Notes under the pieces: model-generated
The model's input: only the letters and a program-made list of their open reading frames with translations
Told to the model about the DNA's origin: nothing
The model's database searches: none
Program-made: the position numbers and the translations under genes
Source: a virus
Virus record (IMG/VR): IMGVR_UViG_3300016665_000872
Span: 1-64,000 of that record
Direction: 5' to 3' (one strand)
DNA length: 64,000 bases
Shown: piece after piece, positions 16,329 through 57,020 of the stretch
How the letters are laid out: each line of letters starts with the position of its first letter
Position numbering within the stretch: position 1 is the stretch's first letter

Positions 16329-17027
16329 ATGGCTCGCTGGGCTATACCGCCAAACCTTCATACCGAGACCATCGGCGGGCCGGTCTGCTACTTCCACGAC
16401 CACAACATCGGCTCCCGGGACGGCCGGATCCCCCGGTACAACGATTCCCATGCCTGCGTGCGTTGCATCTCCTCACTGATGGAGGGGCGACTCACGCTGG
16501 ATGTGCACCGCATGGAGGCTCGCCATCGCCGGCGTTTCCTGGAATTCTGGTCGTTTGTCGAGATCCGCGACCCCGAGGAGTGCTGGCCCTGGCGTGGTCG
16601 CTTCCATAGCCGCAGTTCCTCAGGTTATTTCTCCATTCCCCGCCATTGGGGCCGCGGTCGATCCTTCAGTGCCCAGCGCGTCGCCACCTGGTTCAGCTGG
16701 GGAGATGTCGGCGTCCTGCCGATCAAGCACACCTGCGGCGACAACAACTGCTGCAACCCGCTGCATGTTCGGGTGCAGGGCGTGCCGCACTTCTATCACA
16801 ACCGCAAGCTGCTGCTGCTGGATCTGGAATTCAATTCCCGCAAGCTCAGCCGCGAAACCGACAGCTTCCTGGTCACCACCCGCGACCGGGACCCCAAGCG
16901 CTTTGAGGAATTCGAGCGCCATAACCGCGCCTGGATTGAGTACCGCATCGCCTCCCAGCAGCCGGTCCAGCCAGGTGAGATTGATTTCGGCGAGATGGAT
17001 GATGACGACGACGATGTCCTCGATTAG
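16329..17027 (+). CDS. HNH homing endonuclease
   Basis: ECWPWRG..SGYFS..AQRVATWFSWG..IKHTCGDNNCCNPLHV fits the HNH_3-type pattern. The tail is acidic. Confidence 0.7.
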   Translation: MARWAIPPNLHTETIGGPVCYFHDHNIGSRDGRIPRYNDSHACVRCISSLMEGRLTLDVHRMEARHRRRFLEFWSFVEIRDPEECWPWRGRFHSRSSSGYFSIPRHWGRGRSFSAQRVATWFSWGDVGVLPIKHTCGDNNCCNPLHVRVQGVPHFYHNRKLLLLDLEFNSRKLSRETDSFLVTTRDRDPKRFEEFERHNRAWIEYRIASQQPVQPGEIDFGEMDDDDDDVLD

Positions 17028-17086
17028 GGGACCCGTTGTTTGCAGTTGCCATAAAATCGAGCGACCTACAATGAAGCCATCGCTCG

Positions 17087-17812
17087 TTGATACGGCCCAG
17101 GGCCCATCTAAGCATGGCTTCTTATGCGCGCTATAGCGACATTTACGGGATTAGCCGCCCCGACGACGTTCCTGAAGAGGAGATTCAGCGCTTCAATGAA
17201 GCCCGGGGTTTCTCCAGCCCCCATGGTGCCCAGCAGCCGCGCGAGCTTAAGGCCGGTCAGTTCTTCAAGGACGGTGAGTATGCCGTCGTCTCCGGCAATG
17301 CAGGCGAAGCGGGCTGGGGTGACCACGTTCTCCCGGGCTACAGCAAGATCGGCTACACCGACGACAAGCTGATCCTCAAGCGCAAACCCCAGCCGCAATC
17401 TGCTGCTGCGCCGGCTCCCGCCGCTCCCGCTCCCTCTCAGCCCGAGAAGCCCTACACCCCAAGCGCTGAGGTCCTGGCAGCGCGGGATCGAGTGAATGCC
17501 TGGCGTCAGTCCTCTCCCGGTGGCAGTGATGTTGACGGCCTCAAGATCGGCAGCAGCTTCCTGGACAACCTCAATGCCATCGGCGCTGAGGGGGCACGGC
17601 GCAACGACGATTACAACCGCCGCTTTATTCCAGAGCTCGAAGACCGAGCCAAGCTTGCCGCTGCTGAGATCGGCGACATCACCAGCAATCAGGTGTCCCG
17701 CCTTGATCCTGGCATCAGGCTGCCCAAGGTGCGTGACATTTACGGCCCCTCTGGCGGCATTGATCCCACCAGCCTGTTCTCCCAGATGCAGAATCTGATC
17801 AAGAACGCGTAA
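17087..17812 (+). CDS. hypothetical protein
   Basis: 241-aa ORF with an Ala/Pro linker. ATG 17114 is a possible start. Confidence 0.55.
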   Translation: MIRPRAHLSMASYARYSDIYGISRPDDVPEEEIQRFNEARGFSSPHGAQQPRELKAGQFFKDGEYAVVSGNAGEAGWGDHVLPGYSKIGYTDDKLILKRKPQPQSAAAPAPAAPAPSQPEKPYTPSAEVLAARDRVNAWRQSSPGGSDVDGLKIGSSFLDNLNAIGAEGARRNDDYNRRFIPELEDRAKLAAAEIGDITSNQVSRLDPGIRLPKVRDIYGPSGGIDPTSLFSQMQNLIKNA

Positions 17813-17883
17813 CCATTTGATGCACGCTGCAGCTTGCAGGCCGCCCGCCAGCAAGATACGCTGCGGCCAGCTGCTGATCTCTT

Positions 17884-19620
17884 GTGCTGCCGCCCTTTCG
17901 GGTTGAGCGTGTCGCCGCCTACGAGCTACCCCAGCAAACGGCGTACGTCGCGCTTCACAACGATTACGCCGAAGACTTCACGCCCAGCACATCCATCCCG
18001 GAAGATCGCTGCGGGGAGATCGCCGTTGAGCGCCTGCTCAGTGGCAATCGTGGTCACTACGGGTGCTACTCGGCGGACACATCTGTCATGACCGCTCGTG
18101 GCTGGGTCGCCTGGCCGGAGGTCACCTGCGACGATCAATTGCTTGCCGTTGACATCGAAACCGGCTCTGCGCAGTTTGAGCGTCCGACTGCGCTCTTTGC
18201 TCAAGACGTTCTCCCTGGAGATCGTCTCTATCACGCACGATCACAGCGAATTGACCTTTTGGTCACCCACGACCACCGAATGGTTGTGTCCCACCGCCAG
18301 GGCGGCGGCACCTGGTCATCGTTCCGGTTTCGCAATGCATGTGATGTTGCTGGTCGAGCCGTTCGTTATCGGATGACCGCGGAGCTGAGCGAAGACCAGC
18401 GCAGCCTCCCGCTCGATCTGCCGACCGGTGTCTCGGCCATGGATGCTTTACGTGTTGCTGGTTTCTACTTTGGCGACGGCGTTCGCAGTAGTAGTCACTC
18501 CCCTGTAGTGCTTCGGTTCAGGCTGCGCCGTCCACGAAAAATCGAGTATCTGGAGGGGCTTGCTTCGTCCGTTGGCGTTTTAGAACCCCGTACCAGCGAT
18601 CGCTACACGCTCAAGTGCGGTCCTTTGGCGTCATGGGTTGAACGCCACTTCAAGTCCGAGTCCGGTAAAACGGTCCCCGATTGGCTTATCTCTCTGCCTC
18701 GAGCCGAGTTCCTATCCTTTTTAGACGGTCTGCGCCATAGTGACGGGACTCGGTTTAAGGCTAGTACCTCCCAGGGCGGTGAGAGCTGGGCCCTCGACTC
18801 CTGCGAGTACACGGCATTGCGCAAGATACAGGCGGCCTCGGTAATGAATCACATTGCCACCTACCTGTTTCCCAACCACCCCAACGCTGGCCAAGGGCAT
18901 GAAAATCATCGCCCTTGCTGGCGGTTGACTTTCAGCCACGATCGTACTTTTGCGCGATTTGAAGCCTGCCAACGCCGTACTCGTGGTCTTGAGCAGGCAG
19001 TCCCCTACGAGGGCAAGGTCTATTGCGCCACGGTCTCAACCGGTGCACTCCTTGTTGAGCGCAATGGCAAGCCAATTGTCAGCGGAAACTGTCTAGAACA
19101 CGCCTCCCTGACCCTGGCGATCCAGGCGGATCACAACACGATCATGCAGCTCAGGACCCATCGCCTGGGCTCTTTTGACGTGCAATCCATGCGATACACC
19201 GGTTCTCGCATCGAGAAAGTTGCTAGCGGCGAGCTGCAGCCCGAGGAGGTCTTCTACGTCCGCCCCCCAGGGAACTACCGCGACCGCCAGGGCGATCCCT
19301 ACGCATGGACCCAGGAGCAGGTCGATGAGTGTCTTGCCATCGCCCTTTCCTCTGCCATGGATTACACCCGGCTGCGCGAGCAGGGTGTCTCCGAGGAGCA
19401 CGCCCGCGGTGTGCTGATCACCAGCTATTTCCAGAACGCAGTCGTCACCTTCAATGCTCGCGGCTGGCTGCACCTGCTGGACATCCGCCTCAAGGCCGAT
19501 GCCCAGTGGGAAATGCGCTGCCTGATGGAGATGGTCGAGCGCGAAGTGCAGCGCTGGATCCCTGAAATCCATGCCTGGTGGGCGCAGAACCGCCGCGGCA
19601 AAGCCCGCCTTGCCCCCTGA
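17884..19620 (+). CDS. thyX: flavin-dependent thymidylate synthase ThyX, interrupted by an intein
   Basis: The exteins ..SGNRGHYG | CLEHASLTLAIQADHNTIMQLRTHRLGSFDVQSMRYTG.. match the ThyX HxxxLEH and RHR..S..S.RY regions. A 342-aa insert lies between them. Confidence 0.85.
   Translation: MLPPFRVERVAAYELPQQTAYVALHNDYAEDFTPSTSIPEDRCGEIAVERLLSGNRGHYGCYSADTSVMTARGWVAWPEVTCDDQLLAVDIETGSAQFERPTALFAQDVLPGDRLYHARSQRIDLLVTHDHRMVVSHRQGGGTWSSFRFRNACDVAGRAVRYRMTAELSEDQRSLPLDLPTGVSAMDALRVAGFYFGDGVRSSSHSPVVLRFRLRRPRKIEYLEGLASSVGVLEPRTSDRYTLKCGPLASWVERHFKSESGKTVPDWLISLPRAEFLSFLDGLRHSDGTRFKASTSQGGESWALDSCEYTALRKIQAASVMNHIATYLFPNHPNAGQGHENHRPCWRLTFSHDRTFARFEACQRRTRGLEQAVPYEGKVYCATVSTGALLVERNGKPIVSGNCLEHASLTLAIQADHNTIMQLRTHRLGSFDVQSMRYTGSRIEKVASGELQPEEVFYVRPPGNYRDRQGDPYAWTQEQVDECLAIALSSAMDYTRLREQGVSEEHARGVLITSYFQNAVVTFNARGWLHLLDIRLKADAQWEMRCLMEMVEREVQRWIPEIHAWWAQNRRGKARLAP
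18064..19089 (+). mobile_element. ThyX intein with LAGLIDADG homing-endonuclease domain
   Basis: It starts CYSADTSVMT, has THDHRM (block B-like) and ends ..VERNGKPIVSGN, followed by +1 Cys. Endonuclease motifs are VAGFYFGDGV and FLDGLRHSDGT. It is 1026 nt and in frame. Confidence 0.8.
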
Positions 19621-19623
19621 GCG

Positions 19624-20687: not shown

Positions 20688-20690
20688 GCG

Positions 20691-21191: not shown

Positions 21192-21423
21192 AGATCGCGC
21201 CTCTGTCCTTGGAGAGCGCAGCCCGTTCCGCCAGGGTGCTCAGCCCGCTGTTGCCGCCGATGCTCTGACTGCCGCCTGTACTGCCGCCATAGCTCTGGGC
21301 GAAGCTGGCCTGCTGCTTGGCGACACCGAGGTAGCGGCGCACCAGGGCATCACCGCGGCTGGATCTGCTGTCCGCTGCGCGAGTGCCGTTGTAGAAGCGG
21401 GACTGGCTGTAACGGCGGTCCAT
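21109..21423 (-). CDS. hypothetical protein (doubtful)
   Basis: 104-aa Ser/Gly/Arg-rich ORF. It is convergent with 20691..21191 and overlaps it by 83 nt. Confidence 0.3.
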   Translation of the reverse strand: MDRRYSQSRFYNGTRAADSRSSRGDALVRRYLGVAKQQASFAQSYGGSTGGSQSIGGNSGLSTLAERAALSKDRGAIFKDQGSGALGARRSMWEARQLPDSAGA

Positions 21424-21496
21424 GCATGCTAGGGCGGGCGCACTGCTTGCCCTGGCGCCTGCATCTCCTTATCCTAGGCCCAATTGCTGGCGGCCC

Positions 21497-21979
21497 ATGA
21501 AGACGCGCTTCGATCTGATTCCCTTCGAAGCCGTGGGTGAAATCGCCGATGTGATGGCTTTTGGTGCCAGTAAATACGGCGAACGCAACTGGTGCCGCGG
21601 AACCGAATGGGGCCGCTATTTTGCTGCCCTCTGCCGCCACATCTTCGCCTGGTGGCGCGGCGAAGACCAGGACCCTGAGACGGGTTTGTCCCACCTGGCC
21701 CACGCCGGTTGCTGCTTGATCTTCTTGATGGAATACCAGCGCCATGGCTGGGGCCGGGACGATCGATTCCGCGGCCCTGATCAAGAGGCCTTCCGCAAAG
21801 ATGATGGCCGCTCTGGTAGCTCTGGTAGCGATCTGGACTGGAGCCAGATCGGCCACCTGCCTAGTGGCAATGCCCCGACATCCAAGCTGTGCTGGGTTGA
21901 TCCCAGCGGCAGTCAGCAATGCAAGGAATTGGTCGGCGCCGTGGGGACCAGCGCCGATGATGACGACGGCCTGGACTGA
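21497..21979 (+). CDS. DUF5664 / MazG-like nucleotide pyrophosphohydrolase-domain protein
   Basis: MKTRFDLIPFEAVGEIADVMAFGASKYGERNWCRG...ALCRHIFAWWRGEDQDPETGLSHLAHAGCCLIFL fits the dLiP..al..va.vl..Ga.KY..rNW.kG...RH...D.esG..HLaha pattern. This is recalled from memory. Confidence 0.5.
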   Translation: MKTRFDLIPFEAVGEIADVMAFGASKYGERNWCRGTEWGRYFAALCRHIFAWWRGEDQDPETGLSHLAHAGCCLIFLMEYQRHGWGRDDRFRGPDQEAFRKDDGRSGSSGSDLDWSQIGHLPSGNAPTSKLCWVDPSGSQQCKELVGAVGTSADDDDGLD

Positions 21980-21981
21980 GT

Positions 21982-22883: not shown

Positions 22884-22907
22884 GGCTAATGTAACCGGCT
22901 TCTTTGC

Positions 22908-23971: not shown

Positions 23972-24322
23972 CTATTCGTCTTCGTCCGGAGTTAGGACGA
24001 TTTCATCCATGTCAAGTTCCATTGTGGCACTTTCCCATTGATGCTTGAGATAGGCCTTCTTTTCATCTTCTGTTGGCACATATCCAAGAGCTTTCTTGTA
24101 ATCCTCTTCGGTTTCAGGCTGCCGCCAGGGACGCCTCTCCTGCAGCATGAAGATGAAGCCAGCGTCCCGGCTCATCGACAGAAAGGTCTGCTTGAGCCGA
24201 AACCGCGCCTCCCAGGAATCGCACAATGCGTCGATGAGCTCCCCTCGGTCCAGCTTCTGCGCTTCCACTCGAACGCGCTTGAGCAGGTACTCCTGCTCGG
24301 TCGTCAGCTGATCGTCCGACAT
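23972..24322 (-). CDS. hypothetical protein, NblA-like N-terminal region
   Basis: QLTTEQEYLLKRVRVEAQKLDRGELIDALCDSWEARFRLKQTFL resembles the NblA consensus (LSLEQeF.lr....qv..ms.eqa..fl..ly.qm). A KHQW motif occurs further downstream. The 5' 209 nt overlap the HNH ORF. Confidence 0.5.
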   Translation of the reverse strand: MSDDQLTTEQEYLLKRVRVEAQKLDRGELIDALCDSWEARFRLKQTFLSMSRDAGFIFMLQERRPWRQPETEEDYKKALGYVPTEDEKKAYLKHQWESATMELDMDEIVLTPDEDE

Positions 24323-24707
24323 CGATGTCCTCGCGCAAAGGATTCGTGAAGTCGCTCAGTGACGAGCGCTCCGGCTTCAGCCACGCCTTAATTCTGGCGG
24401 CGCGCTCAGGGCAGAAGAAGCTCTGCTGAACGTACCAGCCGTACCAGTCCCGCTCGCTGCCCTTGGCTGTATTGCAGCGCCGGCAGGCAGGCACCAGGTT
24501 GGAGCGCAGATCAGCCCCGCCAAACGCCCTGGGCCGCACATGATCCAGGGTCATGGTCAGTGGCTCGCCCCGCTCGCCGGAGTTCCTGCCGCAGTAGGCG
24601 CAGCAGCCCCACTCATCCTTGATCGATTGGCGAAACCGGCGGCGAGCGGCGCCGGGTGAGAGATCGATGAGGCTGAACACATAGTTATCCCAGTGTTCTG
24701 GCGTCAT
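24114..24707 (-). CDS. HNH endonuclease
   Basis: CAYCG...LDHVRPRAFGG..NLVPACRRCNTAKG is a classic HNHc motif. The C-terminal roughly 70 aa are low complexity and overlap the next gene. Confidence 0.75.
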   Translation of the reverse strand: MTPEHWDNYVFSLIDLSPGAARRRFRQSIKDEWGCCAYCGRNSGERGEPLTMTLDHVRPRAFGGADLRSNLVPACRRCNTAKGSERDWYGWYVQQSFFCPERAARIKAWLKPERSSLSDFTNPLREDIDVGRSADDRAGVPAQARSSGSAEAGPRGAHRRIVRFLGGAVSAQADLSVDEPGRWLHLHAAGEASLAAA

Positions 24708-25132: not shown

Positions 25133-26257
25133 CTAGAGCCGCTCCAGGAATCGCTTGTGCATAGCGGCCATGTGCTGCTTGTTCACCCAGCGCTGATAGG
25201 TCTCGTTGTGCTCCTTGACGCTGTGGCCCATCAGCTTGGCGCCCACTTCGGCCGGCCAGCCATTGACCAGGAGCCGGATGGCATAGGCATGCCGCAGGGC
25301 ATAGAGCGGAAAGGGCAGCAGCGGGGGGTTGTATCCGCCGCGGCCATCTCGCCGAGGGCCGCGCAGGTAGTCCCGGGCCGCCTTGGCCACCGTGTACTTG
25401 CCGTGTCTTGGCGGGTGAGACTCCTGCAGTCCGTAGGCCTCAACCTTGCAGTCCGGGTAGGCCCAGGACTCCCGCGCCCCGGTCTTGGTCTGGTCTTGGA
25501 CTAACAGGACGTACTTACCGTTGCGCTGCCCGAGCTCGGCCCCGACGATCTCGTGGGGCCTGATCCCAAAGAGCCAGAGCATGCCGTACATCCAGCGCCA
25601 GTGCGGCAGCTCGATCTGGTCGATGTAGGACTCGATCACCTCGTCGGTCGGGATGTCCCGCGGCGTGACGATCCTGCGGGTGTAGCCCTTGCCGGCCTCG
25701 CTGATCCGGTCGCGATCAAAGGGAATCCCCAGGTGGACGACCGCCTGCCGCAGGATCGAAGCCGTGCTGCTGCGCGATGACGGCGACTCAATCTCCCGGA
25801 CAATCCGGCACAGGGCGGCCTCACTGCAGGCGCCCCGCCGCCCCTCGAGGACTCGGATCGCCGGGAGGTAGCGCTTCCCCCAGATGGTGCGGCAGTCTCG
25901 CGGCAGCTCCGGGTATTTCCTGCCGTAGAGCGCTTCCACCCCGGCAATCAGCTCCGGAAACGTCGGCAGGGTGCCCTCCGGCTTGCCCGCGACTTCCTGG
26001 GTCCAGCTCTCCCACTGGAACTCGCCACTGGTCAGCTGGCTATCCAGTCTGCGTGCCAGATCCGCCGCTGGCCGAATGTTTTCTGGCGTGGCCTTGAGCT
26101 GCAGCGAGACCGTGGTCTGCTTCTTGATCGCGGGGTCGTCGCGGCTGGGCATGGTGCCGCGCACGTAAAGACCGCCCCGGCGCTGGACCAGCCGGCAGCG
26201 GTCGAGGCGATCGTTTTCGCGCTGCAGCAGGGAAGTCAGATCCAAGGGCCCGTTCAA
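25133..26257 (-). CDS. int: tyrosine integrase
   Basis: Catalytic-domain residues: ..LYALRHAYAIRLL.. (HxxR) and LMGHSVKEHNETYQRW (H..Y). 374 aa. Confidence 0.85.
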   Translation of the reverse strand: MNGPLDLTSLLQRENDRLDRCRLVQRRGGLYVRGTMPSRDDPAIKKQTTVSLQLKATPENIRPAADLARRLDSQLTSGEFQWESWTQEVAGKPEGTLPTFPELIAGVEALYGRKYPELPRDCRTIWGKRYLPAIRVLEGRRGACSEAALCRIVREIESPSSRSSTASILRQAVVHLGIPFDRDRISEAGKGYTRRIVTPRDIPTDEVIESYIDQIELPHWRWMYGMLWLFGIRPHEIVGAELGQRNGKYVLLVQDQTKTGARESWAYPDCKVEAYGLQESHPPRHGKYTVAKAARDYLRGPRRDGRGGYNPPLLPFPLYALRHAYAIRLLVNGWPAEVGAKLMGHSVKEHNETYQRWVNKQHMAAMHKRFLERL

Positions 26258-27155: not shown

Positions 27156-27998
27156 ATGACGACCCTGATCGGCGCCTGGCGCCAATTCCGCGATGAGCGA
27201 GCTGTCACGCTCTGCCCCACCAGCCTCACCAGCGATTACGTCCAGGTCGAGAAGTGGTTAGGTCGCTGCCCGCTTCAAGACCTGGGCGAGGGGCGCCAAA
27301 TCATGGGCTGGGTTCTGCAGCAGCACCCCCCGAAGACCGCCCGGCGTGTGGCGATGTACCTCAAGAGCCTCTATCGCTGGGCTGCCCATGAGGACATCGG
27401 CCTGATCGAGCGCAGCCCGCTGATCAGCTACCGCATGCCCAAGGCGCCGCAAGGAGAGGGGGAAGTGGTCGTCATTCCCCGTGCCCAGATGCAGCTGGTG
27501 CTGATCGCTTTAGAGCGCCGCACCACGCCCAACTGGGCGCTCTATGCCGAGTGGATGCTGCAAACAGCGATGCGCACCGGTGAGGTGCGGGCCATGCGCT
27601 GGAGCGACATCAAGGACCAGCGCATCCGCATCCACGCCAATTACACCCTCACCCACGGTCTGAAGAGCTCAACCAAGACCAACAAGCCGCGCTGGGTTCC
27701 CCTGAACCAGCGCTGCCTGGAAATCCTGGAGCTCCTGCCGCGGGAGAGCGATTACATCTTTCCCTGGAATCGCATGACGTTTCAGAGCTTTTTCTATGAG
27801 CGCATGAAGCGCGGCTGTGACTCCGGCCTCTTTGAGCGGCGTTACAGGCCCTATGACCTGCGCCACACCGCCATCTCCCGCTGGCTGGAGGCCGGGATCC
27901 CCGTCGCCCAGGCCGCTGCATGGGCTGGCAATACCGCCGAAGTGATCTGGAAGCACTACGCCGGGGTCAGCCAAGAGCACACCATTCCCGTTCTCTGA
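27156..27998 (+). CDS. second tyrosine recombinase (XerC/D-like, short)
   Basis: AMRTGEVRAMRWSDI (Arg I), YDLRHTAISRWL (HxxR) and WAGNTAEVIWKHYAG (catalytic Tyr). 280 aa. Confidence 0.8.
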   Translation: MTTLIGAWRQFRDERAVTLCPTSLTSDYVQVEKWLGRCPLQDLGEGRQIMGWVLQQHPPKTARRVAMYLKSLYRWAAHEDIGLIERSPLISYRMPKAPQGEGEVVVIPRAQMQLVLIALERRTTPNWALYAEWMLQTAMRTGEVRAMRWSDIKDQRIRIHANYTLTHGLKSSTKTNKPRWVPLNQRCLEILELLPRESDYIFPWNRMTFQSFFYERMKRGCDSGLFERRYRPYDLRHTAISRWLEAGIPVAQAAAWAGNTAEVIWKHYAGVSQEHTIPVL

Positions 27999-42221: not shown

Positions 42222-42237
42222 TGTTCGTTACCTCCTA

Positions 42238-46022: not shown

Positions 46023-46046
46023 GGGATGAAACGCTCCGAAGAGTGA

Positions 46047-46823
46047 ATGCGAGAGAGAGGGCGTGCATTACGCCCTCCAAAGCAGACTATAGTGTGGCTT
46101 TGTAGGGAAAAACTTTTGGAGCCCGCTGACGTCCGCGGGCTGCTGGCCTTACTCCTGGCTGACGGCAGCCTCGTCCCATATCGCAGTCCTGGAGGGGGTT
46201 ATGTCCAACTCACCCTCACAGCCGGACTGAACGAATCCGCTTTTCTTGAGGAAAAGGTCGCTGAATTCAGGCATTTCATCCCAACGGATGCCCAAATTGC
46301 TCACTACACGACCACCCCTCGGGCCAACGGCAAAACCACGATGGTCCTGCGGTTTCGCGTTTCGACCAACAAACTGCGGCCCATCTACAACCTCCTCTAC
46401 CCAGGCGGCGAGCGAACGATCACCCGTTCGGCGCTAGACCTCCTGGGTGGTACGGCTGCCGCGTGGATGTGGGCGGAGGGCGCCAGGCGGCAGCGGGATA
46501 ACAGCTTCCAATTGGCCCGGGTCGGCACTACATACGAAGAAGCCGAGCTCATCGGCCAGTGGCTGACGATGTTGACTGGCGCCGACTCCCGCATTGACGA
46601 GGAGCGCGTCAGGCCCCGTCTTCTTTTTTCCGCTGCCCAGGCCGCAAAGATCCAAGAAGCACTGCTTCCCTACGCACCGGTCAGCCGCAAACACCTATTC
46701 CTCTCTGAGATCTGGGATGAGCGATCCATTCGTAGTGCACGCACTCAGCTACTGCTTGGGAAAAGGGGAGATTCAGCTCAAGGGGCGGATCAAGCGCCCG
46801 TGGCTGAAGATCCAGCGACCTGA
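46047..46823 (+). CDS. LAGLIDADG-type endonuclease-like protein (second motif degenerate)
   Basis: Motifs LLALLLADGSL and AAWMWAEGAR. It is similar in layout to the intron 2 enzyme. The start may be GTG near 46093. Confidence 0.6.
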   Translation: MRERGRALRPPKQTIVWLCREKLLEPADVRGLLALLLADGSLVPYRSPGGGYVQLTLTAGLNESAFLEEKVAEFRHFIPTDAQIAHYTTTPRANGKTTMVLRFRVSTNKLRPIYNLLYPGGERTITRSALDLLGGTAAAWMWAEGARRQRDNSFQLARVGTTYEEAELIGQWLTMLTGADSRIDEERVRPRLLFSAAQAAKIQEALLPYAPVSRKHLFLSEIWDERSIRSARTQLLLGKRGDSAQGADQAPVAEDPAT

Positions 46824-47307
46824 GACCGAGCGCACCTACCTCGACCATCAGATCCGCAAGCTGCGTAAATTCCACGACGGCCCGCACGATGCGATCTGGG
46901 ACCGGATCCCGGGTCCTGGCTTTTATGACATCGAGCGGCTGCGATTCAAGGGCAGCCAGCTCTGGCACGTCTATGAGCTCCTCTACCCCCGGGATGAGTG
47001 GACCCTGACCCCAGACATCCTGCGCATGACGGGCATGACTGGCATTGCAGCCCTTTGGTGCGACTGCGGCCACTGGAAGAACGGCACGATGCGCTTCGGG
47101 GGGCGTGATCTGAATATCACCAGGGACGACTACGCGCTCCTGGCGACTCATCTCGCTGATCTTGGCTTCCACTGCCGCATTGAGAACCGCGGGCGTCTTG
47201 TTGTGGCCGTCACTATGACCCCGCTCTATCTCAGGGACTTCATTCGCAAGCTGCGGCCCCACGTCCACCGCTCGATGCATCACACCTTGGTGAAGCCACG
47301 CCGCTAA
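46594..47307 (+). CDS. LAGLIDADG-type endonuclease-like protein (motifs degenerate)
   Basis: The likely start is ATG 46717 (MSDPFVVHALSYCLGKGEI..). The second motif is IAALWCDCGHW. It overlaps the previous ORF in another frame. Confidence 0.55.
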   Translation: MTRSASGPVFFFPLPRPQRSKKHCFPTHRSAANTYSSLRSGMSDPFVVHALSYCLGKGEIQLKGRIKRPWLKIQRPETERTYLDHQIRKLRKFHDGPHDAIWDRIPGPGFYDIERLRFKGSQLWHVYELLYPRDEWTLTPDILRMTGMTGIAALWCDCGHWKNGTMRFGGRDLNITRDDYALLATHLADLGFHCRIENRGRLVVAVTMTPLYLRDFIRKLRPHVHRSMHHTLVKPRR

Positions 47308-47530
47308 CATCAAGAAGCCCCGAAGAAGAACGGCGTCAGGGGCATAATCCACCAGGAGTTCAAGTTTTTGCCGTTTCCTTGAACTGGTGAGTGAACCGCC
47401 GTGCGACTGATCACCGTGCGGCGGCGCCTGGGCCTGGTTTTCTCTAGCATGCTTGCAATCGCGGGCATTATATGCAGAGGGCGATCGATTTCTGCGATGC
47501 CGCCACGGCTATTTCACCGGGGATTGAGCC

Positions 47531-48331
47531 ATGAGCGTGCTCTCCCAGAGTGATGCCATTGAGGCCCTTCGCAGGAGCTACGGGGGCAGCGACAGCACAG
47601 CGCCATCTTTCCTGAGGCCCCAGTACGTTCGGCACAATAGTTTCAGCAAGGCTCAAGACTTCGGCCCCAGGGACAACCTCAATGCTGTCGTCAGTGGATT
47701 AGTCGGCGGCGAGGTCGGGGCTCCCACGCTGTTCTTCAAGGTGCAGCTCAACAGTCCCGCCGACGTGCGCATCGTCAAGGGCAGTATCAATCCCAGGACG
47801 GACCAGTACATCGCTGTCGGCATCACAGATGGGGACCGCCGCCCGCTTCCCCTCGATGAGCTGGGCTTCCTGTCGGCCAACGACGTCCATAACACCGAGG
47901 ACAACGAGTCCCTGGCGCGCTCGCCAGCCGGCACCTATTACTTCACGGTGAGCTCCAGCCAGTGGCAGGCGCTCCCCTTTTCTGTGGGGCTGCTGGTCAT
48001 CAGCTACAAGGAGGTCTCAGGCTTCCTCTCCGGCACCGGCGATGTCACGGGCCGCCTGGCCATGGCCAAGCTCGAGGGTGCGGCCCTGGGCTCCGACGCG
48101 ACCAGTGCTGCCATCCCTGTTCCCGCGACGATCGAGCGGCTGGATGGCGCTACTGGTGGCGCTGCTCCCCTGGCAGGTGAGTTGGCGATCTTGAGCGGTG
48201 CCATCACCGGCACCATGACGCCCTATGGCTATCTGATGCAGACCCATCGCCTCGAGGGTGCTGCCAGCGCCGCCGCGCCCGTTACCGGCACTCTCACGGT
48301 CACCACCCCGGGCGGCGGGTACGGATACTAA
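47531..48331 (+). CDS. hypothetical protein
   Basis: 266-aa ORF on the + strand within the otherwise - strand virion module. Confidence 0.6.
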   Translation: MSVLSQSDAIEALRRSYGGSDSTAPSFLRPQYVRHNSFSKAQDFGPRDNLNAVVSGLVGGEVGAPTLFFKVQLNSPADVRIVKGSINPRTDQYIAVGITDGDRRPLPLDELGFLSANDVHNTEDNESLARSPAGTYYFTVSSSQWQALPFSVGLLVISYKEVSGFLSGTGDVTGRLAMAKLEGAALGSDATSAAIPVPATIERLDGATGGAAPLAGELAILSGAITGTMTPYGYLMQTHRLEGAASAAAPVTGTLTVTTPGGGYGY

Positions 48332-48396
48332 GGCTTGCGGTCTGTCTGCACTGGCGTTCAAAATTGCCACAATAGAGAGGAAGAATTAGGCGCGAC

Positions 48397-48819
48397 ATGG
48401 CCTTCTCGCAGTACCTTGCCAGTCAAATCTTGAACTGGGTCAAGGGAACAACGTTTGCCTCGTCGCTCAGCAACGTCTTCATCTCGATCCACACGGGCGA
48501 CCCCGGCACTGCTGGCACCGCTAACGACACCACCAGCAATGTGACGGGCACCGCCAACCGTCGCTCGGTCTCCAGCGCCGCCTTCTCCTCTGTTGGCAGT
48601 GCTCCAGGCGGTGGCTTTCAGATCACCAACACCGGCACCGTGCAGCTCACCACCAGTGCGGCCAACAGCACGCCCGTGACCGTCACCCATTTCGGCATCT
48701 GGGACGCCCAGACCGGCGGCAACTTCCTGGCCTCTGGCTCCCTGACGACCAGCGTTTCCATTCAAAACGGCGACACCGTGCAGTTCAACATCGGCGCCAT
48801 GGCCGTGCGGGTGGTCTGA
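48397..48819 (+). CDS. hypothetical conserved phage protein
   Basis: MAFSQYLASQILNWVKGTTF...FISIHTGDPGTAGTANDT...VTHFGIWDAQTGGNFLASG..NGDTVQF is a pattern I recall from phage structural regions. The family name is not known to me. Confidence 0.65.
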   Translation: MAFSQYLASQILNWVKGTTFASSLSNVFISIHTGDPGTAGTANDTTSNVTGTANRRSVSSAAFSSVGSAPGGGFQITNTGTVQLTTSAANSTPVTVTHFGIWDAQTGGNFLASGSLTTSVSIQNGDTVQFNIGAMAVRVV

Positions 48820-48950
48820 TGGCGAAACCCAAGGCCAGCCCCACGGCACAGAAGCACCGCGACCCCGTCCACCACAAGACTCGCCAGGGGCAGGGACGCG
48901 GCAGTAAGCCCAGCCACGGGCGCAAACCATCTCGCGGGCAGGGGCGCTAA
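48819..48950 (+). CDS. very basic 43-aa peptide (doubtful)
   Basis: Below the ORF-track cutoff: MAKPKASPTAQKHRDPVHHKTRQGQGRGSKPSHGRKPSRGQGR. Its ATG overlaps the upstream TGA (TGATG). Confidence 0.3.
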   Translation: MAKPKASPTAQKHRDPVHHKTRQGQGRGSKPSHGRKPSRGQGR

Positions 48951-48969
48951 CCCCTGCCCCTTATGGCGA

Positions 48970-49722
48970 TCAAGCGACGGTCAGGATGCCGGCGTTGGAC
49001 GTACGGGACGGGGCGCCGCCATTCGAGCTCACGATCACCCGATAGCGATTGGCGTTCAGGCCCGTGCTGTTGCTAATCGAGAGGGTCGCTGTGGTGGCAC
49101 CGCTGTAGACGCCGCCGTTGGTGATGTTGGTGTAGCTGGTGCCGCCATTGGTCGACAGCTGCCACTGATAGCTCAGGCTGCCGCCATCGTTGGTGCTGGC
49201 CGTTACGGTGAACGTGGTCGCAGCGGGCGCTGTCACCGAGCGGTTCGGGGGCTGAGCTGAAATCGTGATCAGATCCAGGTTCAGCTCCAGCTGGTACTTC
49301 AGGGTCGAGTAATCGGTGTGCTCGACCACAACCCAGAGCCGATCGCCACTGCCAACACTGAAGGGTCCCAGTGCAGCAACCGAGCGCGAGTCAGCAGGAC
49401 GCTTGCGGCCCAGGCAGGTCACCGCAGCGCTCGGATCAGCCACGCCATTGACCTGCTGGAGCACTGCGATATTGCCGACAGCCCGGTGGGATGCATGGAA
49501 GCCGGCCTCGCTGTAGGGCCGGATGCGCACTGTATAGGCACCGGGGTCTGTGCCGTTGCCGCTGTTGTTGATTTCGTATTGATCAACCGACCCGTAAATA
49601 CCGCTCAGACGGGAATAATCGCTTTTCGTGTCACCCGACCTGGGGCCACGTAGCTGTGCCGGGCCGACGATCGCCTGCTTGCCGTCCGTGCCACGGCGAT
49701 TGATTTTGTCAATGATGGCCAT
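48970..49722 (-). CDS. Ig-like domain virion protein
   Basis: The C-terminal roughly 95 aa (ITISAQPPNRSVTAPAATTFTVTAS..LSYQWQLSTNGGTSYTNI..ATLSISNST..NRYRVIVSS) have a bacterial Ig-like pattern. Confidence 0.7.
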   Translation of the reverse strand: MAIIDKINRRGTDGKQAIVGPAQLRGPRSGDTKSDYSRLSGIYGSVDQYEINNSGNGTDPGAYTVRIRPYSEAGFHASHRAVGNIAVLQQVNGVADPSAAVTCLGRKRPADSRSVAALGPFSVGSGDRLWVVVEHTDYSTLKYQLELNLDLITISAQPPNRSVTAPAATTFTVTASTNDGGSLSYQWQLSTNGGTSYTNITNGGVYSGATTATLSISNSTGLNANRYRVIVSSNGGAPSRTSNAGILTVA

Positions 49723-49764
49723 GGACGCAAATAGCCCGCACGCAATAGGGCTAGTCTAGCCGCC

Positions 49765-50979
49765 CTAATAATCCCAGACCGCCGCAGGTTTTACGCCTGG
49801 ACGAGTAGAGAACTTGCCTCCATTGCGGGTATCAATGTGGATGAAGCCCTTGCACCGACCGTCGCCATAGCCGCCGCTCCATCGCTGGATCAGCCACTGG
49901 TGAAACTGCTGCAGTGAGCCGCCCACCGGATAGATATCCAGCGCCATGCCCTTGACGTGATAGCTATTGGCAACACCGCCGACCTCGCGATTAATCGGCT
50001 CAGGTCTATAGCCACTGGTCACCCCAAGAGGGCCATTCCAGGCCACACGAATCGCATCAAACTCCTTGCAGATCGCCAGGATTGCTTTCTCTTCGGCGCT
50101 GCCGGGCTTAGGCCTGCGCCGGGCGTCGTATTGCAGCACCTCGCCGACAGTGATGTACTGGCCGACGGGGGCTGAGAAGTCCGCCCAGTTCACCGCAGCG
50201 CCTGGGGTGGGCTTTGCTCCAGCTGGCTTGATAGCGCCCCAGTGGGGTGTAAATGCTGCCCAGTGCTCGCCGTCCTCCAGTGTGAACCAGGCGTGGGTGT
50301 CGCCTGCGATCTCTTCCACTTTTGAGACCACGATCTCAGCGCCCTCCTTGTAGAGCTTCTTGCCGTGCTCCGAGAAGTACGCGCTTTCGATTGGCGCTTT
50401 CTTCAGGTAGGTCTCGTGATTGGCCTTGAAGCGCAGCATGCCGCCTCCTTCCGAATTCCAGATGTTTGCTTCCGCCTGGCGGCGGTTCACTAAGCCATCG
50501 AGCGTCTTACCGCCCGCCTTGACGTAAAGCAGCAGCGCCGATTCCATCTGTGCGTACGCGGCTGGATTGCTGGCCCCATCGCGCAGGACGCGGCTGATGG
50601 TCTCGAAGCCCGCAGCCCCGTAGAACCTGGCGCCCATATTCCAGGCGAAGCTCAGCAGCACGGCTTGCCGCTGGGGGCCGAATTGCGCCCAACCCGGAAT
50701 CCGTTCCTGCGGCGGCAGGAACTCCTGGCGCAGCATTTGCTCGAGGTAGCCGCGGCAAATCCTCATGTCGCAGATGTCGCCCATCCGCACCGGTATCCCG
50801 TTGGGATAACGGGTCAGCCCAGCGCAGATCGTGGGGACGCCCACCGCATCCAGGTAGGCCTCGGTCTCGATGCCCTCGAACTTCTCGATCAGCTCGATGG
50901 CGCGCGGGAGAGTATCAGGATGCGTCGCCATGGGTGGATGCAAACCTGAAGTTCCAGCGCGGTGGCATTTCCTCCCCAT
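49765..50979 (-). CDS. cell-wall hydrolase: GH24 lysozyme + M15 peptidase domains
   Basis: IEKFEGIETEAYLDAVGVPTICAGLT (T4-lysozyme-type E/D/T). C-terminal SGYRPEPINREVGGVANSYHVKGMALDI and GFIHIDTR (peptidase M15). The likely start is ATG 50931. Confidence 0.8.
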   Translation of the reverse strand: MGRKCHRAGTSGLHPPMATHPDTLPRAIELIEKFEGIETEAYLDAVGVPTICAGLTRYPNGIPVRMGDICDMRICRGYLEQMLRQEFLPPQERIPGWAQFGPQRQAVLLSFAWNMGARFYGAAGFETISRVLRDGASNPAAYAQMESALLLYVKAGGKTLDGLVNRRQAEANIWNSEGGGMLRFKANHETYLKKAPIESAYFSEHGKKLYKEGAEIVVSKVEEIAGDTHAWFTLEDGEHWAAFTPHWGAIKPAGAKPTPGAAVNWADFSAPVGQYITVGEVLQYDARRRPKPGSAEEKAILAICKEFDAIRVAWNGPLGVTSGYRPEPINREVGGVANSYHVKGMALDIYPVGGSLQQFHQWLIQRWSGGYGDGRCKGFIHIDTRNGGKFSTRPGVKPAAVWDY

Positions 50980-51172
50980 CGAGGACCTTGAGCCCTTGGG
51001 TCAGTGCTGCCTGCTCCGAGAGTCCGCTGCTGCGAAGTTGGGTCACCAATTCCGCCAGCTGCTCCATTCGGGCAATCTGATGAGCTACCTCCTCCTGACG
51101 CGAAGATGCCCCAGCGATGTGACTCGCCAGGGCATCTAAAACATCAGATCGGGCGGCAAGCCGCATGGGCAA
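50915..51172 (-). CDS. hypothetical protein
   Basis: 85-aa helical ORF. Confidence 0.45.
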   Translation of the reverse strand: MPMRLAARSDVLDALASHIAGASSRQEEVAHQIARMEQLAELVTQLRSSGLSEQAALTQGLKVLDGEEMPPRWNFRFASTHGDAS

Positions 51173-51221
51173 CAGCGCGCTCCGTTCAATCTAGCGGTCC
51201 CAGATCTTGCGGAGTGAACGC

Positions 51222-51566: not shown

Positions 51567-51568
51567 GA

Positions 51569-54332: not shown

Positions 54333-54341
54333 AGAACTATG

Positions 54342-57020
54342 TTAGGTCCACTCAACATGGGCAGCTCCGCGGCGCATAAGGCCTTGAACGACGATGTTCA
54401 GCGAGTCAGCGCAATCGTCGTGGGCCGTGTGGCCGAAGTTGACCATCTCGTCGATCATGCAGCTGAAGTCGCGGTACTTGTTGAAGATGATCTTGCCGCC
54501 CTCGAACAGGCCCAGGATCCCCCGTAGCCGCGCAAGCTTGTCACCGCGGAATCCCTTCACCGGCGAGATCGTGATGTTGTACAGCTGCCACTCGTTGAAG
54601 AGGATCCGCTTGAGGTCGCCTTCAAAGCTCTTCTGATACGCGACGACCTCCGGCCAGATGGTGACCGGCGAGTTTGTCGGGAAATACTGGCCTTCGTCGT
54701 TAGTGGCCAGCAGGTTCCACTCCAGCAGGAGCTCGCAGAGGGCCTCCACCTTTTCGATGTTGCCCATCGAGCGCATCCGCCGGTAATCGATGACATAGCA
54801 CTTGTCACCGGAGCGGCCGGCCAGCGTGAACACGGTCCAGTCATTCCGCTCGCTCATGCCAGCCGAGAGGTCGATCCCAACGCCAATCGTGTCGTAGACA
54901 TCGGGAACCTCGCCCTTGATGAACAGCTCGGGGCTGATCCCGAGTTCCTTGGAGCGAATCGGCTGATTCAGGTACTGGTATGAGAAGGCAACCCGATCGT
55001 CTGCCTGCAGTTTGAGTAGGTATTTCGCTGACCACATCGATGGCCAGTAGCTGCGGGGGCGGCCGTCATCGTCGTAGCTCAGCGCCGACTGGGTCACGAC
55101 GGTCCAGCCCTTTTTCTCATTGAAGGTCGTGGCAAAGAGGTCGTCGAAGTGAAACCGCGTTCCCAGGGCAATGGCGCGGGCGCCCTGGAACATGGTCGGC
55201 ACGATCACGTTGTTCCAGTTCGCCTCCATTTCCCTTCTGATGTCCGGATTGGCGATAGAGGCTGCACTCTTGATCGCGTCGTCCACCACGATCAGTGAGC
55301 TCCGTTTGGAGGTAATCGTGCCCTTCAGGCCGGCGCAAGCGACCGTGAAGGCGTCCTCGCCGCGGACGTCGATCTGGGCATAGTCAAAATCAATGGACCA
55401 CAGCTCATCCGAGGTTCTGACCTTGGAGAGGCGTACCGTCGGGAAGATCTCTTGGTATTCCTTCGAGAGGATTGTGTTCTTGATGGCCGCACTCTTATTG
55501 CGTGCTACATCGACGTTGTAGCTGACATAAAGAACGCGTAATAGCTTTTTGGCTAGCGCATGCCTTCCGATTAGCCACGCTATTAGTAGTCCAAGGACGG
55601 TCGACTTCGCCGAGTTTTTGCTGACGACATAGTCTTTGACGATGAATCGCTCGGACTCGTCTTCAATGGTGATGCACCGCACGTCGCGAGGACTGGTCGG
55701 GCGAATATCGATAATCGAACGCACCAATCCGCCATTGGATTTGCTGCTCACCGGACCCTGATACCGAGCTGCCTTGCTCTGGGAGTGAAAGGGCAGAATC
55801 TCATCCGGCAGCCGGATACCAAGGCGATAGGCCATCCGGCAACTGACCCGAGTCCCGTCGGCCTTCGTGTACCCGCTCTGATACGGCTTTCGGTGCATGC
55901 ACAGCCCGCCAAGCGAGCGTACAAGTTCAGCCATGTCCGAGACGAGCTGTTCAGAACTCGATCCAAAGCTGATCCCGCCGCGCGCTGACGGCTTCGTGGT
56001 TCCGTCCGTGTCAAGCAGCCCCTGAAGCAGAGCCATGCGCTGCCCGGGTGAGCCCATCAGGTACTCACTCGGGATGAATTTTTCATGGGACTTCGCACCC
56101 CATAAGCCAAGGCGCTTCAGCTCCTCAATCAGCACATTGGGACTGCCCTTGCGTCCAGCGATACGCCAGTCGCCACGGGTGCCGCGACTGCTGGATGGCA
56201 CCAGCTCATACCCCTCGGGGAGAGCGGCAATGACGCGCTCGACTAGATCGTCGTCATTCTTGTGAAATCTGACGGAGCCAGTTGTCAGGGCGCCATCGCC
56301 AATTAGAACGCCAAGCAGATACGGATCAATGATGTATTGCCTTTTCGGGTACTGAACTGGGTCGCAGATCGGCACCTGGTACTTGGCGTACCCGCGCGTA
56401 TCCAGCCACGGGGTTTCGCCTTCTCGGGCCTCGCGCCATACCGGCGTCACACCCGTGCGCCAATTTCCGGCGGCCCGCTCAAAGACCCGCGATCGAATTT
56501 GCTGGAGGGTAACGGTTCGCCACTGACCCTTCTCGTCGCTACCAATCAGGCGGACGTCCCAGCGGTGACTGTCGTCGCAAACCACACTGGTACCGTCAGA
56601 GAGGATCACCTCCCAGCAAGAGGTCTCGCCGTAATCCACGGTGTCGACTACCCGGGTCGGCTGCCCATTGCCGGCAATAACGGTGTCGCCCTTCTGGATG
56701 TCCCTCAGGGGCCTCCATCCCTCTGGTGTGGCGACCGGCGTATCGCAGTCGAGCGGCCCGCGCGGACTGAGGAGACACGTGTTCGGTCCGGCTATATCTA
56801 GGAGGTGATCATTGCTCTTTCCTGTCAAGAAAGCGCGGTGCCACTCCAGCATGTGCCTCGCTGGCGGCTTACCCATCAGCTCGCAGAAGGCCGCGAAGCT
56901 GTCCCGCGCCTTCAGGATGTGCGCAGGCGGCTCAATGACCACCTCAGGCTGCTTTTTGATTCCCTGAGCAGCCAGTCGTGCACTGCGCTGCCGGGCAAGA
57001 GCGATTGATGCACCAGGCAT
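54342..57020 (-). CDS. terL: terminase large subunit, interrupted by an intein
   Basis: Exteins: ..CLLSPRGPLD | SAKSTVLGL (Walker A), SSLIVVDDAIKS (Walker B), and nuclease motifs GIDLSAG and HTAHDDCADSL. The spliced product would be 514 aa. Confidence 0.9.
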   Translation of the reverse strand: MPGASIALARQRSARLAAQGIKKQPEVVIEPPAHILKARDSFAAFCELMGKPPARHMLEWHRAFLTGKSNDHLLDIAGPNTCLLSPRGPLDCDTPVATPEGWRPLRDIQKGDTVIAGNGQPTRVVDTVDYGETSCWEVILSDGTSVVCDDSHRWDVRLIGSDEKGQWRTVTLQQIRSRVFERAAGNWRTGVTPVWREAREGETPWLDTRGYAKYQVPICDPVQYPKRQYIIDPYLLGVLIGDGALTTGSVRFHKNDDDLVERVIAALPEGYELVPSSSRGTRGDWRIAGRKGSPNVLIEELKRLGLWGAKSHEKFIPSEYLMGSPGQRMALLQGLLDTDGTTKPSARGGISFGSSSEQLVSDMAELVRSLGGLCMHRKPYQSGYTKADGTRVSCRMAYRLGIRLPDEILPFHSQSKAARYQGPVSSKSNGGLVRSIIDIRPTSPRDVRCITIEDESERFIVKDYVVSKNSAKSTVLGLLIAWLIGRHALAKKLLRVLYVSYNVDVARNKSAAIKNTILSKEYQEIFPTVRLSKVRTSDELWSIDFDYAQIDVRGEDAFTVACAGLKGTITSKRSSLIVVDDAIKSAASIANPDIRREMEANWNNVIVPTMFQGARAIALGTRFHFDDLFATTFNEKKGWTVVTQSALSYDDDGRPRSYWPSMWSAKYLLKLQADDRVAFSYQYLNQPIRSKELGISPELFIKGEVPDVYDTIGVGIDLSAGMSERNDWTVFTLAGRSGDKCYVIDYRRMRSMGNIEKVEALCELLLEWNLLATNDEGQYFPTNSPVTIWPEVVAYQKSFEGDLKRILFNEWQLYNITISPVKGFRGDKLARLRGILGLFEGGKIIFNKYRDFSCMIDEMVNFGHTAHDDCADSLNIVVQGLMRRGAAHVEWT
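55614..56747 (-). mobile_element. TerL intein with LAGLIDADG homing-endonuclease domain
   Basis: It starts CDTPVATPEGW, has DDSHRW (block B-like) and LAGLIDADG motifs YLLGVLIGDGAL and LLQGLLDTDGT. It ends ..DYVVSKN followed by +1 Ser. It is 1134 nt and in frame. Confidence 0.85.

Follow-up and report, generated by a model that had tools for sequence, protein, structure and literature searches.

A segment of 40,692 nt (positions 16329-57020) in the viral record IMGVR_UViG_3300016665_000872 of IMG/VR, which we analysed over its positions 1 to 64,000 (hereafter the window), carries a dense set of introns, inteins and free-standing nuclease genes. Four group I introns split the major capsid gene, the large terminase and ThyX genes each contain an intein, and a further five nuclease genes stand free between other genes. 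Very probably, a relative of the Synechococcus phage S-EIV1 has accumulated here seven patchily distributed self-removing or endonuclease insertions (the four introns, the two inteins and one HNH nuclease gene) together with four nuclease genes that resemble long-term residents, and we propose that such insertions splice and home. The anatomy of the insertions, their exact borders, the empty sites in close relatives and their patchy distribution are read directly from the DNA.

The window is about 64 kb of an uncultured S-EIV1 relative whose genome is about 85 kb. Its G+C content is 60.8%, and an 85,374-bp metagenomic contig produced by k-mer assembly (ENA ERZ27292652, k141_609375) encodes a protein identical to its ThyX. 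A megablast search with 17 kb of the window against 50,697 phage records returned no match, and a protein search with one capsid exon matched a single record, that of S-EIV1 (KJ410740), at 63% identity. IMG/VR contains at least 599 stretches coding for relatives of the window capsid protein; the S-EIV1-like lineage is therefore common, and it is almost uncultured, S-EIV1 being the only isolate. Relatives compared with the window are given L-numbers below (L002, L185, L202, L282 and so on), where L001 is S-EIV1 and L002 is an IMG/VR contig.

Four group I introns split the capsid gene

The major capsid gene runs from 46022 to 42241 on the minus strand and is split by four group I introns, each matched on the same strand by the Rfam model RF00028. 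To set the exon borders we combined tblastn with junction reading against the uninterrupted 383-codon capsid open reading frame (ORF) of S-EIV1, which five stop-free segments of the window tile with no gap and no overlap. Exon A (45879-46022, 48 codons) begins at an ATG at 46022 that aligns with the starts of the S-EIV1 and L002 capsid ORFs. It is followed by intron 1 (45551-45878, 328 nt, without an ORF), exon B (45374-45550, 59 codons, 177 nt), intron 2 (44413-45373, 961 nt, with a LAGLIDADG_2 ORF on the same strand) and exon C (44320-44412, 31 codons, 93 nt), exons B and C both being located by tblastn to S-EIV1. Intron 3 (44074-44319, 246 nt, without an ORF) precedes exon D (43639-44073, 145 codons, 435 nt), placed by comparison with S-EIV1, and intron 4 (42532-43638, 1107 nt, with an antisense LAGLIDADG_3 ORF) separates exon D from exon E (42241-42531, 96 codons plus stop), which abuts it on the S-EIV1 ORF.

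Against an RF00028 gathering score of 50 bits, intron 3 reaches 70.3 bits (match 44084-44329, E 8.6e-16) and intron 1 reaches 50.9 bits (45587-45888). The two introns that score below this level are the ones interrupted by ORFs, and at the ends they share 77-86% identity with one another and with intron 1 (80-86% for intron 2 against introns 1 and 4), with intron 3 more distant. We applied the group I test, in which the 5′ splice site follows a U paired with G in P1 and the 3′ end is a terminal G: all four introns are preceded by an exon T, finish in G and lie in phase 0, between codons. A guide sequence complementary to the end of the 5′ exon is readable in every intron, most clearly in intron 1 (GCGGUC against GACCGU). 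Removal of the introns yields a 379-residue capsid protein that is 97% identical over its full length to the product of the uninterrupted L002 gene. The introns have a G+C content of 52-56% against 61% for the window, and the Rfam structure alignments place an extra P7.1/P7.2-type insert between P7 and the 3′ strand of P3, by which the introns appear to resemble subgroup IA, a likeness taken from alignment rather than formal classification.

Every intron lies in phase 0, and the lengths of exons B, C and D (177, 93 and 435 nt) are multiples of three, so that any exon skipping between the similar introns, of the kind reported for phage Twort, would keep the frame. We also considered a fifth intron holding the ORFs that open at 46047 and 46594, and rejected it, since both lie upstream of the capsid ATG at 46022 and that ATG aligns with the S-EIV1 and L002 starts. 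The S-EIV1 GenBank record does not annotate the capsid gene as one coding sequence: the uninterrupted 383-codon ORF occupies L001 7587-8738, and the annotation of KJ410740 60784-62010 (L001 7512-8738) gives AHV82227, a hypothetical protein on the minus strand, and AHV82228, a short one on the plus strand.

Two introns carry LAGLIDADG endonuclease genes

The endonuclease ORF of intron 2 (44474-45289, minus strand, 271 residues) matches Pfam LAGLIDADG_2 at 45.7 bits against a cut-off of 25 and phrog_11023 at 5e-9. It is placed between P7 and the 3′ strand of P3, its motifs LLGDG and LWCDDG are intact, and translation is likely to start at an ATG at 45226, which follows GGAG and would give a protein of 250 residues. 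The ORF of intron 4 (42621-43475, 284 residues) lies on the plus strand, antisense to the intron, and matches LAGLIDADG_3 at 37.7 bits against 22.5 and phrog_4645 at 1.4e-23. The initial annotation had counted these two ORFs among four LAGLIDADG genes outside the inteins; all four are real, and these two lie within introns 2 and 4 and so do not add insertions of their own.

At capsid site 283/284, that of intron 4, the intron of L185 is 277 nt long and lacks an endonuclease cassette. It agrees with positions 8-185 of intron 4 at 90% identity and with positions 1028-1107 at 87.5%, and 12 nt replace positions 186-1027. From this comparison the intron 4 cassette spans about 840 nt, roughly 42612-43453, in the P8 loop. 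Because a same-site intron lacks it, the endonuclease gene of intron 4 is a discrete cassette that was gained or lost separately from its intron. No phage case of a group I intron with its endonuclease gene in antisense was found in the literature searched.

The capsid gene of this lineage has many intron sites

The best 80 of the at least 599 capsid relatives (78-97% identity) are all uninterrupted, a figure that is no frequency because retrieval favours contiguous matches. A scan for the intron core motif found at least 120 loci, of which at least nine code for capsid homologues whose match is split or ended by the contig end, and in all eight of these loci that were scanned Rfam hits occupy the gaps between capsid protein matches. 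L135 (3089-4943) has four capsid introns; L192 (3637-5845) has five internal group I introns and a sixth hit just upstream of codon 5; and L185 (4128-6371) has two introns, at the sites of window introns 1 and 4, and one upstream hit. In L185, L192 and L151 a group I hit immediately precedes codon 4-5 and would lie either after a tiny first exon or within the 5′ leader.

Together, the window and its relatives have about ten or more intron sites in 380 codons, at approximately codons 31-37, 48/49, 87-91, 107/108, 132/133, 138/139, 145, 215/216, ~232, ~245 and 283/284. The window has a short intron at site 48/49, whereas the introns of L088, L185 and L191 there are about 915-920 nt long and each contain a LAGLIDADG-like ORF detected by tblastn; site 283/284 reverses this arrangement, with the endonuclease-bearing intron in the window and the short one in L185. 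The capsid gene of the lineage has been invaded repeatedly at many sites, and orthologous introns occur both with and without endonuclease cassettes. By analogy, the driver of this accumulation may be endonuclease-mediated competition between co-infecting phages, which, as cited in PMC12908238, has been shown for an intron endonuclease of phage ΦPA3. Literature searches returned no report of capsid introns in S-EIV1-like phages.

A class-3-like intein in the terminase

The large terminase precursor (54342-57020, minus strand, 892 residues; phrog_38 1.9e-69, Terminase_6C) contains a 381-residue intein with a LAGLIDADG endonuclease domain (55614-56756, minus strand; residues 89-469), which interrupts the P-loop after SPRG, runs from PLDCDT to VVSKN and is followed by SAKST. 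The intein matches Pfam LAGLIDADG_3 (31-34 bits against 22.5) and Hom_end. The spliced terminase of 511 residues aligns end to end, at 91% identity, with the uninterrupted terminase L202, which comes from the same contig as L002. The sequence SPRG-SAKST is uninterrupted in S-EIV1 and in 78 of 80 IMG/VR terminase homologues, whose length agrees with that of the spliced product, and L256 and L257 have an orthologous intein, 50% identical, at the same site.

The N-terminal region of the intein matches PDB 6bs8 (1.7e-11), a 139-residue chain deposited as 'replicative DNA helicase', which we take to be the class 3 DnaB intein of Mycobacterium smegmatis. The Trp of the window intein lies in HRW, aligned with HQW of 6bs8, and the block-F Cys lies in VRCITIE (VRCISIE in the orthologues). 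Pro1 is fixed by comparison with the intein-free SPRG-SAKST sequence and is kept in L256 and L257; indeed, Pro1, the Trp, the block-F Cys, the Ser at +1 and the P-loop site are all kept in the window intein and its orthologues. Class 3 inteins have a non-nucleophilic residue 1, a Trp-Cys-Thr set at positions B:12, F:4 and G:5, a Ser or Thr at +1 and, typically, a P-loop site (PMC2807308, PMC5050341). Because the window intein has all of these features except the Thr at G:5, we describe it as apparently class-3-like.

Two other inteins were encountered alongside. The S-EIV1 terminase (846 residues, L001 808-3348) contains a standard intein that is placed elsewhere in the protein and interrupts the Walker B region, where SKRSHL is followed by an intein running from CLVGDT to VLN and then by CLIDD; TIGR01445 and TIGR01443 both detect it. 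On an unrelated viral contig, L107 7993-9060 encodes an intein that is 27% identical to the window terminase intein and has canonical class 3 features (Ala1, HLW, the block-F Cys, and THN followed by Thr), directly after a GVGK P-loop motif.

A ThyX intein detected by fold

The ThyX precursor (17884-19620, plus strand, 578 residues) matches the Thy1 profile over positions 53-191 only, at residues 403-561. Its intein (18064-19089, plus strand; 342 residues, 61-402) begins with CYSADT, ends with IVSGN before a Cys and contains a LAGLIDADG endonuclease domain. Splicing in silico gives a contiguous Thy1 match over positions 8-191, at 119.7 bits against 106.8 unspliced, and L282 has an uninterrupted thyX homologue at 76% identity. 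At least 79 homologues of the intein were found; apart from one fragment of 346 residues, all lie within ThyX proteins 519-598 residues long. Among them are proteins of Synechococcus elongatus chromosomes, at about 50% identity. Across 41 sequences Cys1, Thr68 to His71 (TxxH), Asn342 and Cys+1 are at least 90% conserved, the penultimate Gly is invariant and the family alignment conserves two LAGLIDADG motifs.

An AlphaFold model built from the family alignment has a mean pLDDT of 94.6, and Foldseek matches it to the TliVMA intein (7e-16), PI-SceI (2e-13) and then PI-PfuI; the PDB structures that fit it best are inteins with an endonuclease (E 7e-16 to 1e-9, TM about 0.6). The model has a Hint fold, and by its conserved residues the intein is a standard Cys1 (class 1) one. 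The intein is confirmed by this high-confidence fold match together with the intein-free L282 homologue, and by the profile criterion of the initial annotation it would have failed. The family also has, besides Cys1, a conserved block-F Cys (VYCATV) where Asp is usual. Its presence in both cyanophage contigs and cyanobacterial chromosomes hints at host-phage transfer.

Free-standing HNH and LAGLIDADG genes

HNH-3 (32514-33014, minus strand, 166 residues) matches Pfam HNH_3 (PF13392) at 58.7 bits and phrog_99 at 1.5e-63. It occupies a gap of 634 nt, flanked by a fibre-like gene of 791 residues and a gene of 184 residues; in 34 of 41 relatives of the module these two flanking genes are at most 87 nt apart, leaving the junction empty. 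L355 and L346 have different HNH genes at this junction, identified with PHROGs, and a Pfam search of their inserts returned nothing. HNH-3 therefore appears to fit the pattern expected of a free-standing homing endonuclease.

HNH-1 (16329-17027, plus strand, 232 residues) is an HNH_3-like nuclease gene with the motif HTCGDNNCCNPLH. It has no Pfam hit and matches four PHROG nuclease families, the best being phrog_1872 (1.6e-14), annotated only as 'endonuclease', and the other three annotated as HNH endonuclease, for example phrog_826 (2.6e-10). HNH-2 (24114-24707, minus strand, 197 residues) matches Pfam HNH (PF01844) at 43.3 bits against 21.4. Both have a homologue in L282, for HNH-1 at the same position with 61% identity and for HNH-2 syntenic with 54%, values within the range of neighbouring genes. 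HNH-2 overlaps a 116-residue ORF (23972-24322, minus strand) by 209 nt in a different frame, and both find L282 homologues across the overlap; a metagenome gene caller had called only the 116-residue ORF there.

Two LAGLIDADG genes lie upstream of the capsid gene and diverge from it. Free1 (46047-46823, plus strand, 258 residues) matches LAGLIDADG_2 at 35.3 bits against a cut-off of 25. Free2 (46717-47307, plus strand, 196 residues) is a degenerate LAGLIDADG gene in an ORF that opens at 46594, and its start is probably the conserved Met at 46717. Free2 scores 16.6 bits with LAGLIDADG_2, under the cut-off, and fails with PHROGs too; by hhalign of the two families (probability 98.2%, E 2.9e-14), however, free2 is a paralogue of free1. 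The two genes overlap by about 107 nt (46717-46823) in different frames, an arrangement also present in L002, and they head a plus-strand block that continues with a 266-residue gene and a gp80-like fibre gene.

About 33 relatives, among them the intron-free L002, have both genes at the corresponding position and free of stop codons. Across 33 free1 sequences (the window and 32 relatives) there are no stops, and the Asp/Glu acidic residues of both motifs are at least 90% conserved. The ratio of non-synonymous to synonymous substitution rates (dN/dS) is 0.14-0.24 for free1, like that of neighbouring genes (0.12-0.28), and 0.37-0.74 for free2, values that are approximate because dS is near saturation (about 1-2.5). 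In all 16 free2 sequences the acidic residue of motif 1 is lost and an invariant Asp is retained in motif 2. The pair is absent from S-EIV1 and from more distant capsid relatives, and appears to behave as a long-term resident rather than a recent insertion. We considered whether free1 and free2 act in trans on the capsid introns, as homing enzyme or splicing helper, and rejected this because co-occurrence does not support it, the pair and the introns not tracking each other in either direction: L104, L120, L191 and L192 have capsid introns and no upstream pair, and L002 and about 30 others have the pair and no capsid introns.

Density of insertions

Introns account for 2,642 nt, inteins for 2,169 nt, the free LAGLIDADG pair for 1,261 nt and HNH genes for 1,794 nt, a total of 7,866 nt. 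This comes to 19.3% of the 40,692-nt segment, or 12.3% if the whole window is counted. The patchily distributed elements alone make up 5,312 nt, or 13% of the segment. In phage T4, 15 endonuclease genes make up 11% of coding potential (PMC2988022). A scan of 40 other ORFs across the window found no further mobile-element domains.

Much of the initial annotation stood: each element that it listed exists at or close to the position given, and the support for it is far above chance. It had proposed an unusually high density of selfish elements, and the share of the segment bears this out against the T4 figure. Its four group I introns are present, with Rfam matches and exact borders, and all lie in one gene; its two inteins, in terminase and ThyX, are supported by empty sites in relatives, conserved residues and fold; and it named the invaded genes, capsid, large terminase and ThyX, correctly. 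Its tally of 13 separate insertions falls to 11 once the two nested ORFs are set within their introns. Its three HNH genes are all real, and the AP2 domain that it gave to HNH-3 is reduced to a weakly AP2-like C-terminus (17.3 bits, below the Pfam cut-off of 33.3). Its motif-based calls were borne out by Pfam profiles for the ORFs at 42621, 44474, 46047, 24114 and 32514, and fell short for those at 46594 and 16329 and for the ThyX intein.

Other claims needed more revision. Comparison of presence and absence among relatives, which it had recommended along with dN/dS on the endonuclease ORFs, found only the introns, the inteins and HNH-3 to be patchy; HNH-1, HNH-2, free1 and free2, four of the 11 loci, are conserved in position in the relatives available (for HNH-1 and HNH-2, in L282), and so the description of all elements as selfish holds for part of them. 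The dN/dS comparison likewise separated free1, which resembles its neighbours, from free2. The proposal that HNH genes sit at module borders agrees with HNH-3, at a junction empty in most relatives, and not with HNH-1, which is one gene away from thyX rather than adjacent. HNH-2 was said to head a lysis operon; what was taken for that operon is a gene with an SLT_3 domain and an unproven role, and a clear lysozyme and peptidase gene lies elsewhere, at 49765-50979. Finally, the genome cannot at present serve as the natural system for homing and marker exclusion that was envisaged, nor be used in the co-infection crosses suggested, because its source is a metagenomic contig and not a culturable system.

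A proposed course of invasion and its alternatives

In the course of events that we propose, the capsid gene would be transcribed as a precursor from which the four related introns splice themselves out, leaving the message for the 379-residue protein, and the LAGLIDADG cassette of intron 4 would have been acquired separately from its intron. Terminase and ThyX would be translated as precursors, with the inteins excised at the protein level; the terminase intein, which lacks an N-terminal nucleophile, may use the block-F cysteine route of class 3 inteins. During mixed infections the endonucleases would cut alleles free of introns or inteins, and repair from the occupied allele would copy the element in. 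Introns 1 and 3, which have no ORF and lie 177 and 93 nt from intron 2, may be carried along by co-conversion.

Several observations weigh against this reading. We infer splicing, cleavage and homing of these elements from sequence. The RF00028 match of intron 4 (42569-43648, 49.3 bits) falls 0.7 bits under the gathering score, and that of intron 2 (44450-45383, 30.3 bits, E 8e-4) falls further below it. A scan of 42100-47600 for a promoter of the antisense endonuclease gene found no sigma-70-like site, a result that is uninformative for a cyanophage. In the terminase intein, G:5 is Ser in the window and Leu in L256 and L257 against Thr in class 3; with this Thr absent, the splicing route is uncertain. 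The ThyX intein gave no match at E up to 1 to Pfam (Hint, Intein_splicing) or NCBIfam (TIGR01445 and TIGR01443, the models that do detect the S-EIV1 terminase intein), and a sequence search of the PDB gave none either. The sample of relatives is biased, since retrieval keeps the best contiguous matches, and element frequencies cannot be estimated from it. For HNH-1 and HNH-2, L282 is the only syntenic relative retrieved, and their conservation is judged from that one comparison.

Three other explanations were weighed against accumulation by active mobile elements. The interruptions could be artefacts of metagenome assembly, or the capsid gene a pseudogene, and the source is indeed a k-mer assembled metagenomic contig; yet nucleotide-exact borders restore a full-length frame 97% identical to an intact homologue, and independent contigs carry like interruptions, two of them at the same sites, which makes this explanation extremely improbable. 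A less remote alternative is that the elements are fixed relics, with introns and inteins that still remove themselves, inactive endonucleases and no homing, so that the segment records past invasions. The lost motif residue and relaxed constraint of free2 and the two introns without an endonuclease gene would agree with it, as would the failure to find close orthologues for the endonucleases of introns 2 and 4, so that selection on these is not measurable. However, introns 2 and 4 and both inteins have full-length endonuclease ORFs, in which the acidic residues of both LAGLIDADG motifs are present; introns and inteins are patchy among relatives at 91-97% protein identity, which implies recent gain or loss; and the intron 4 cassette is absent from the 90%-identical L185 intron. 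We regard relics as unlikely.

The remaining alternative concerns the four conserved loci, and for these the balance is even. HNH-1, HNH-2, free1 and free2 may be ordinary useful phage genes, acting in the exclusion of competitors, DNA processing or splicing help rather than as selfish elements, in which case the count of insertions is inflated. This would be consistent with the constant position and intact frames of free1 and free2 in about 33 relatives, with a dN/dS for free1 in the range of its neighbours, and with the synteny of HNH-1 and HNH-2 in L282 at identities (61% and 54%) typical of nearby genes. On the other side, free1 and free2 were probably gained once, with a 5-kb block, because they are missing from S-EIV1 and the distant capsid relatives; the free-standing endonucleases of T4 are also conserved in their lineage and yet mobile (PMC2988022); and only one relative informs the comparison for the HNH pair.

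Comparison with known systems

Every element type described here is already known; the crowding in one gene is unusual. In the Staphylococcus phage Twort, three group I introns related to one another lie in a single gene (Landthaler and Shub 1999, cited in PMC3073962). The likeness lies in several similar self-splicing introns within one phage protein-coding gene, a similarity that suggests spread within the gene or genome. The difference is that here four introns occupy a 1.14-kb capsid gene (five or six in relatives) and two of them carry LAGLIDADG genes, one antisense. Exon skipping is reported for Twort. Cluster J mycobacteriophages likewise combine a capsid intron with an endonuclease, a terminase intein near the N-terminus and free HNH genes; their capsid intron is single, its splicing was shown experimentally, and host, lineage and details of the intein site differ (PMC3706429).

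T4 also has many intron-encoded and free-standing endonuclease genes beside conserved genes, with co-conversion and marker exclusion expected, but its enzymes belong to GIY-YIG and HNH families, with one intron per gene and no inteins (PMC2988022). The window, by comparison, is dominated by LAGLIDADG enzymes, has inteins and shows a greater local density (19% of 41 kb, compared with 11% of coding potential in T4). The terminase intein shares with class 3 inteins, whose prototype is the DnaB intein of mycobacteriophage Bethlehem, a non-nucleophilic residue 1, the B:12 Trp, the F:4 Cys, the +1 Ser and a site in the P-loop of a phage ATPase (PMC2807308, PMC5050341); it differs in its Pro1, its penultimate Lys and the Ser at G:5 (Leu in the orthologues) in place of Thr. 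As in the Didymium rDNA intron that encodes I-DirII, the endonuclease ORF of intron 4 runs opposite to the intron and host gene and needs its own expression signals; I-DirII, however, sits in an intron of nuclear rDNA in a eukaryote and has a Pol II promoter and a spliceosomal intron (PMC3073962), whereas the window has a phage protein-coding host gene and a cassette in the P8 loop. The Jug jumbo phages of the gut have an average of 18.5 short introns spread over 360-402 kb (PMC12880540); the window has four packed into one gene of a genome of about 85 kb.

Neighbouring genes

Relative to S-EIV1, the window carries an insert of about 5.2 kb (46023-51221), which separates the capsid gene from a small gene lying upstream of the scaffold-like region. 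This block, kept in L002 and other close relatives, contains the lysozyme and M15 peptidase gene (49765-50979), a PKD-like gene (48970-49722), the gp80-like fibre gene (48397-48819), the 266-residue gene and the LAGLIDADG pair. Elsewhere, an ORF at 21422-21979 (plus strand) encodes the N-terminal domain of a dATP/dGTP diphosphohydrolase (PF18909, 5e-32), near ThyX and a dCMP deaminase (15181-15729); no PurZ-like gene was found among the ORFs scanned, which gives no support for a modified-base genome. A tyrosine integrase gene lies at 27156-27998 (plus strand; Phage_integrase 7e-15), and an ORF at 25133-26257 (minus strand) has a weak integrase C-terminal match, a hint of an Arm-DNA-binding domain and a 28%-identical homologue in L282. 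The two integrase-like ORFs suggest a lysogeny module or an embedded element.

Implications

Group I introns, inteins and homing endonucleases serve as models of selfish DNA and as sources of genome-engineering enzymes. The window offers four candidate LAGLIDADG enzymes from one genome, with natural targets that can be read from the empty alleles of close relatives, and in the terminase intein the class 3 signature appears in a variant form with Pro1. Cyanophages and cyanobacterial chromosomes have the ThyX intein family in common, and yet standard profiles fail to detect it. Automated gene calling will fragment the genes for capsid, terminase and ThyX in this lineage, and a relative of the window capsid protein is encoded by more than 599 IMG/VR stretches. 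The intron with and without a cassette, at about 90% identity, provides a direct snapshot of how a composite mobile intron is assembled. We suggest tentatively, and with some doubt, that the capsid gene of these phages may be the most intron-dense phage gene described; if true, it would be a natural archive in which introns were gained repeatedly and endonucleases captured and lost.

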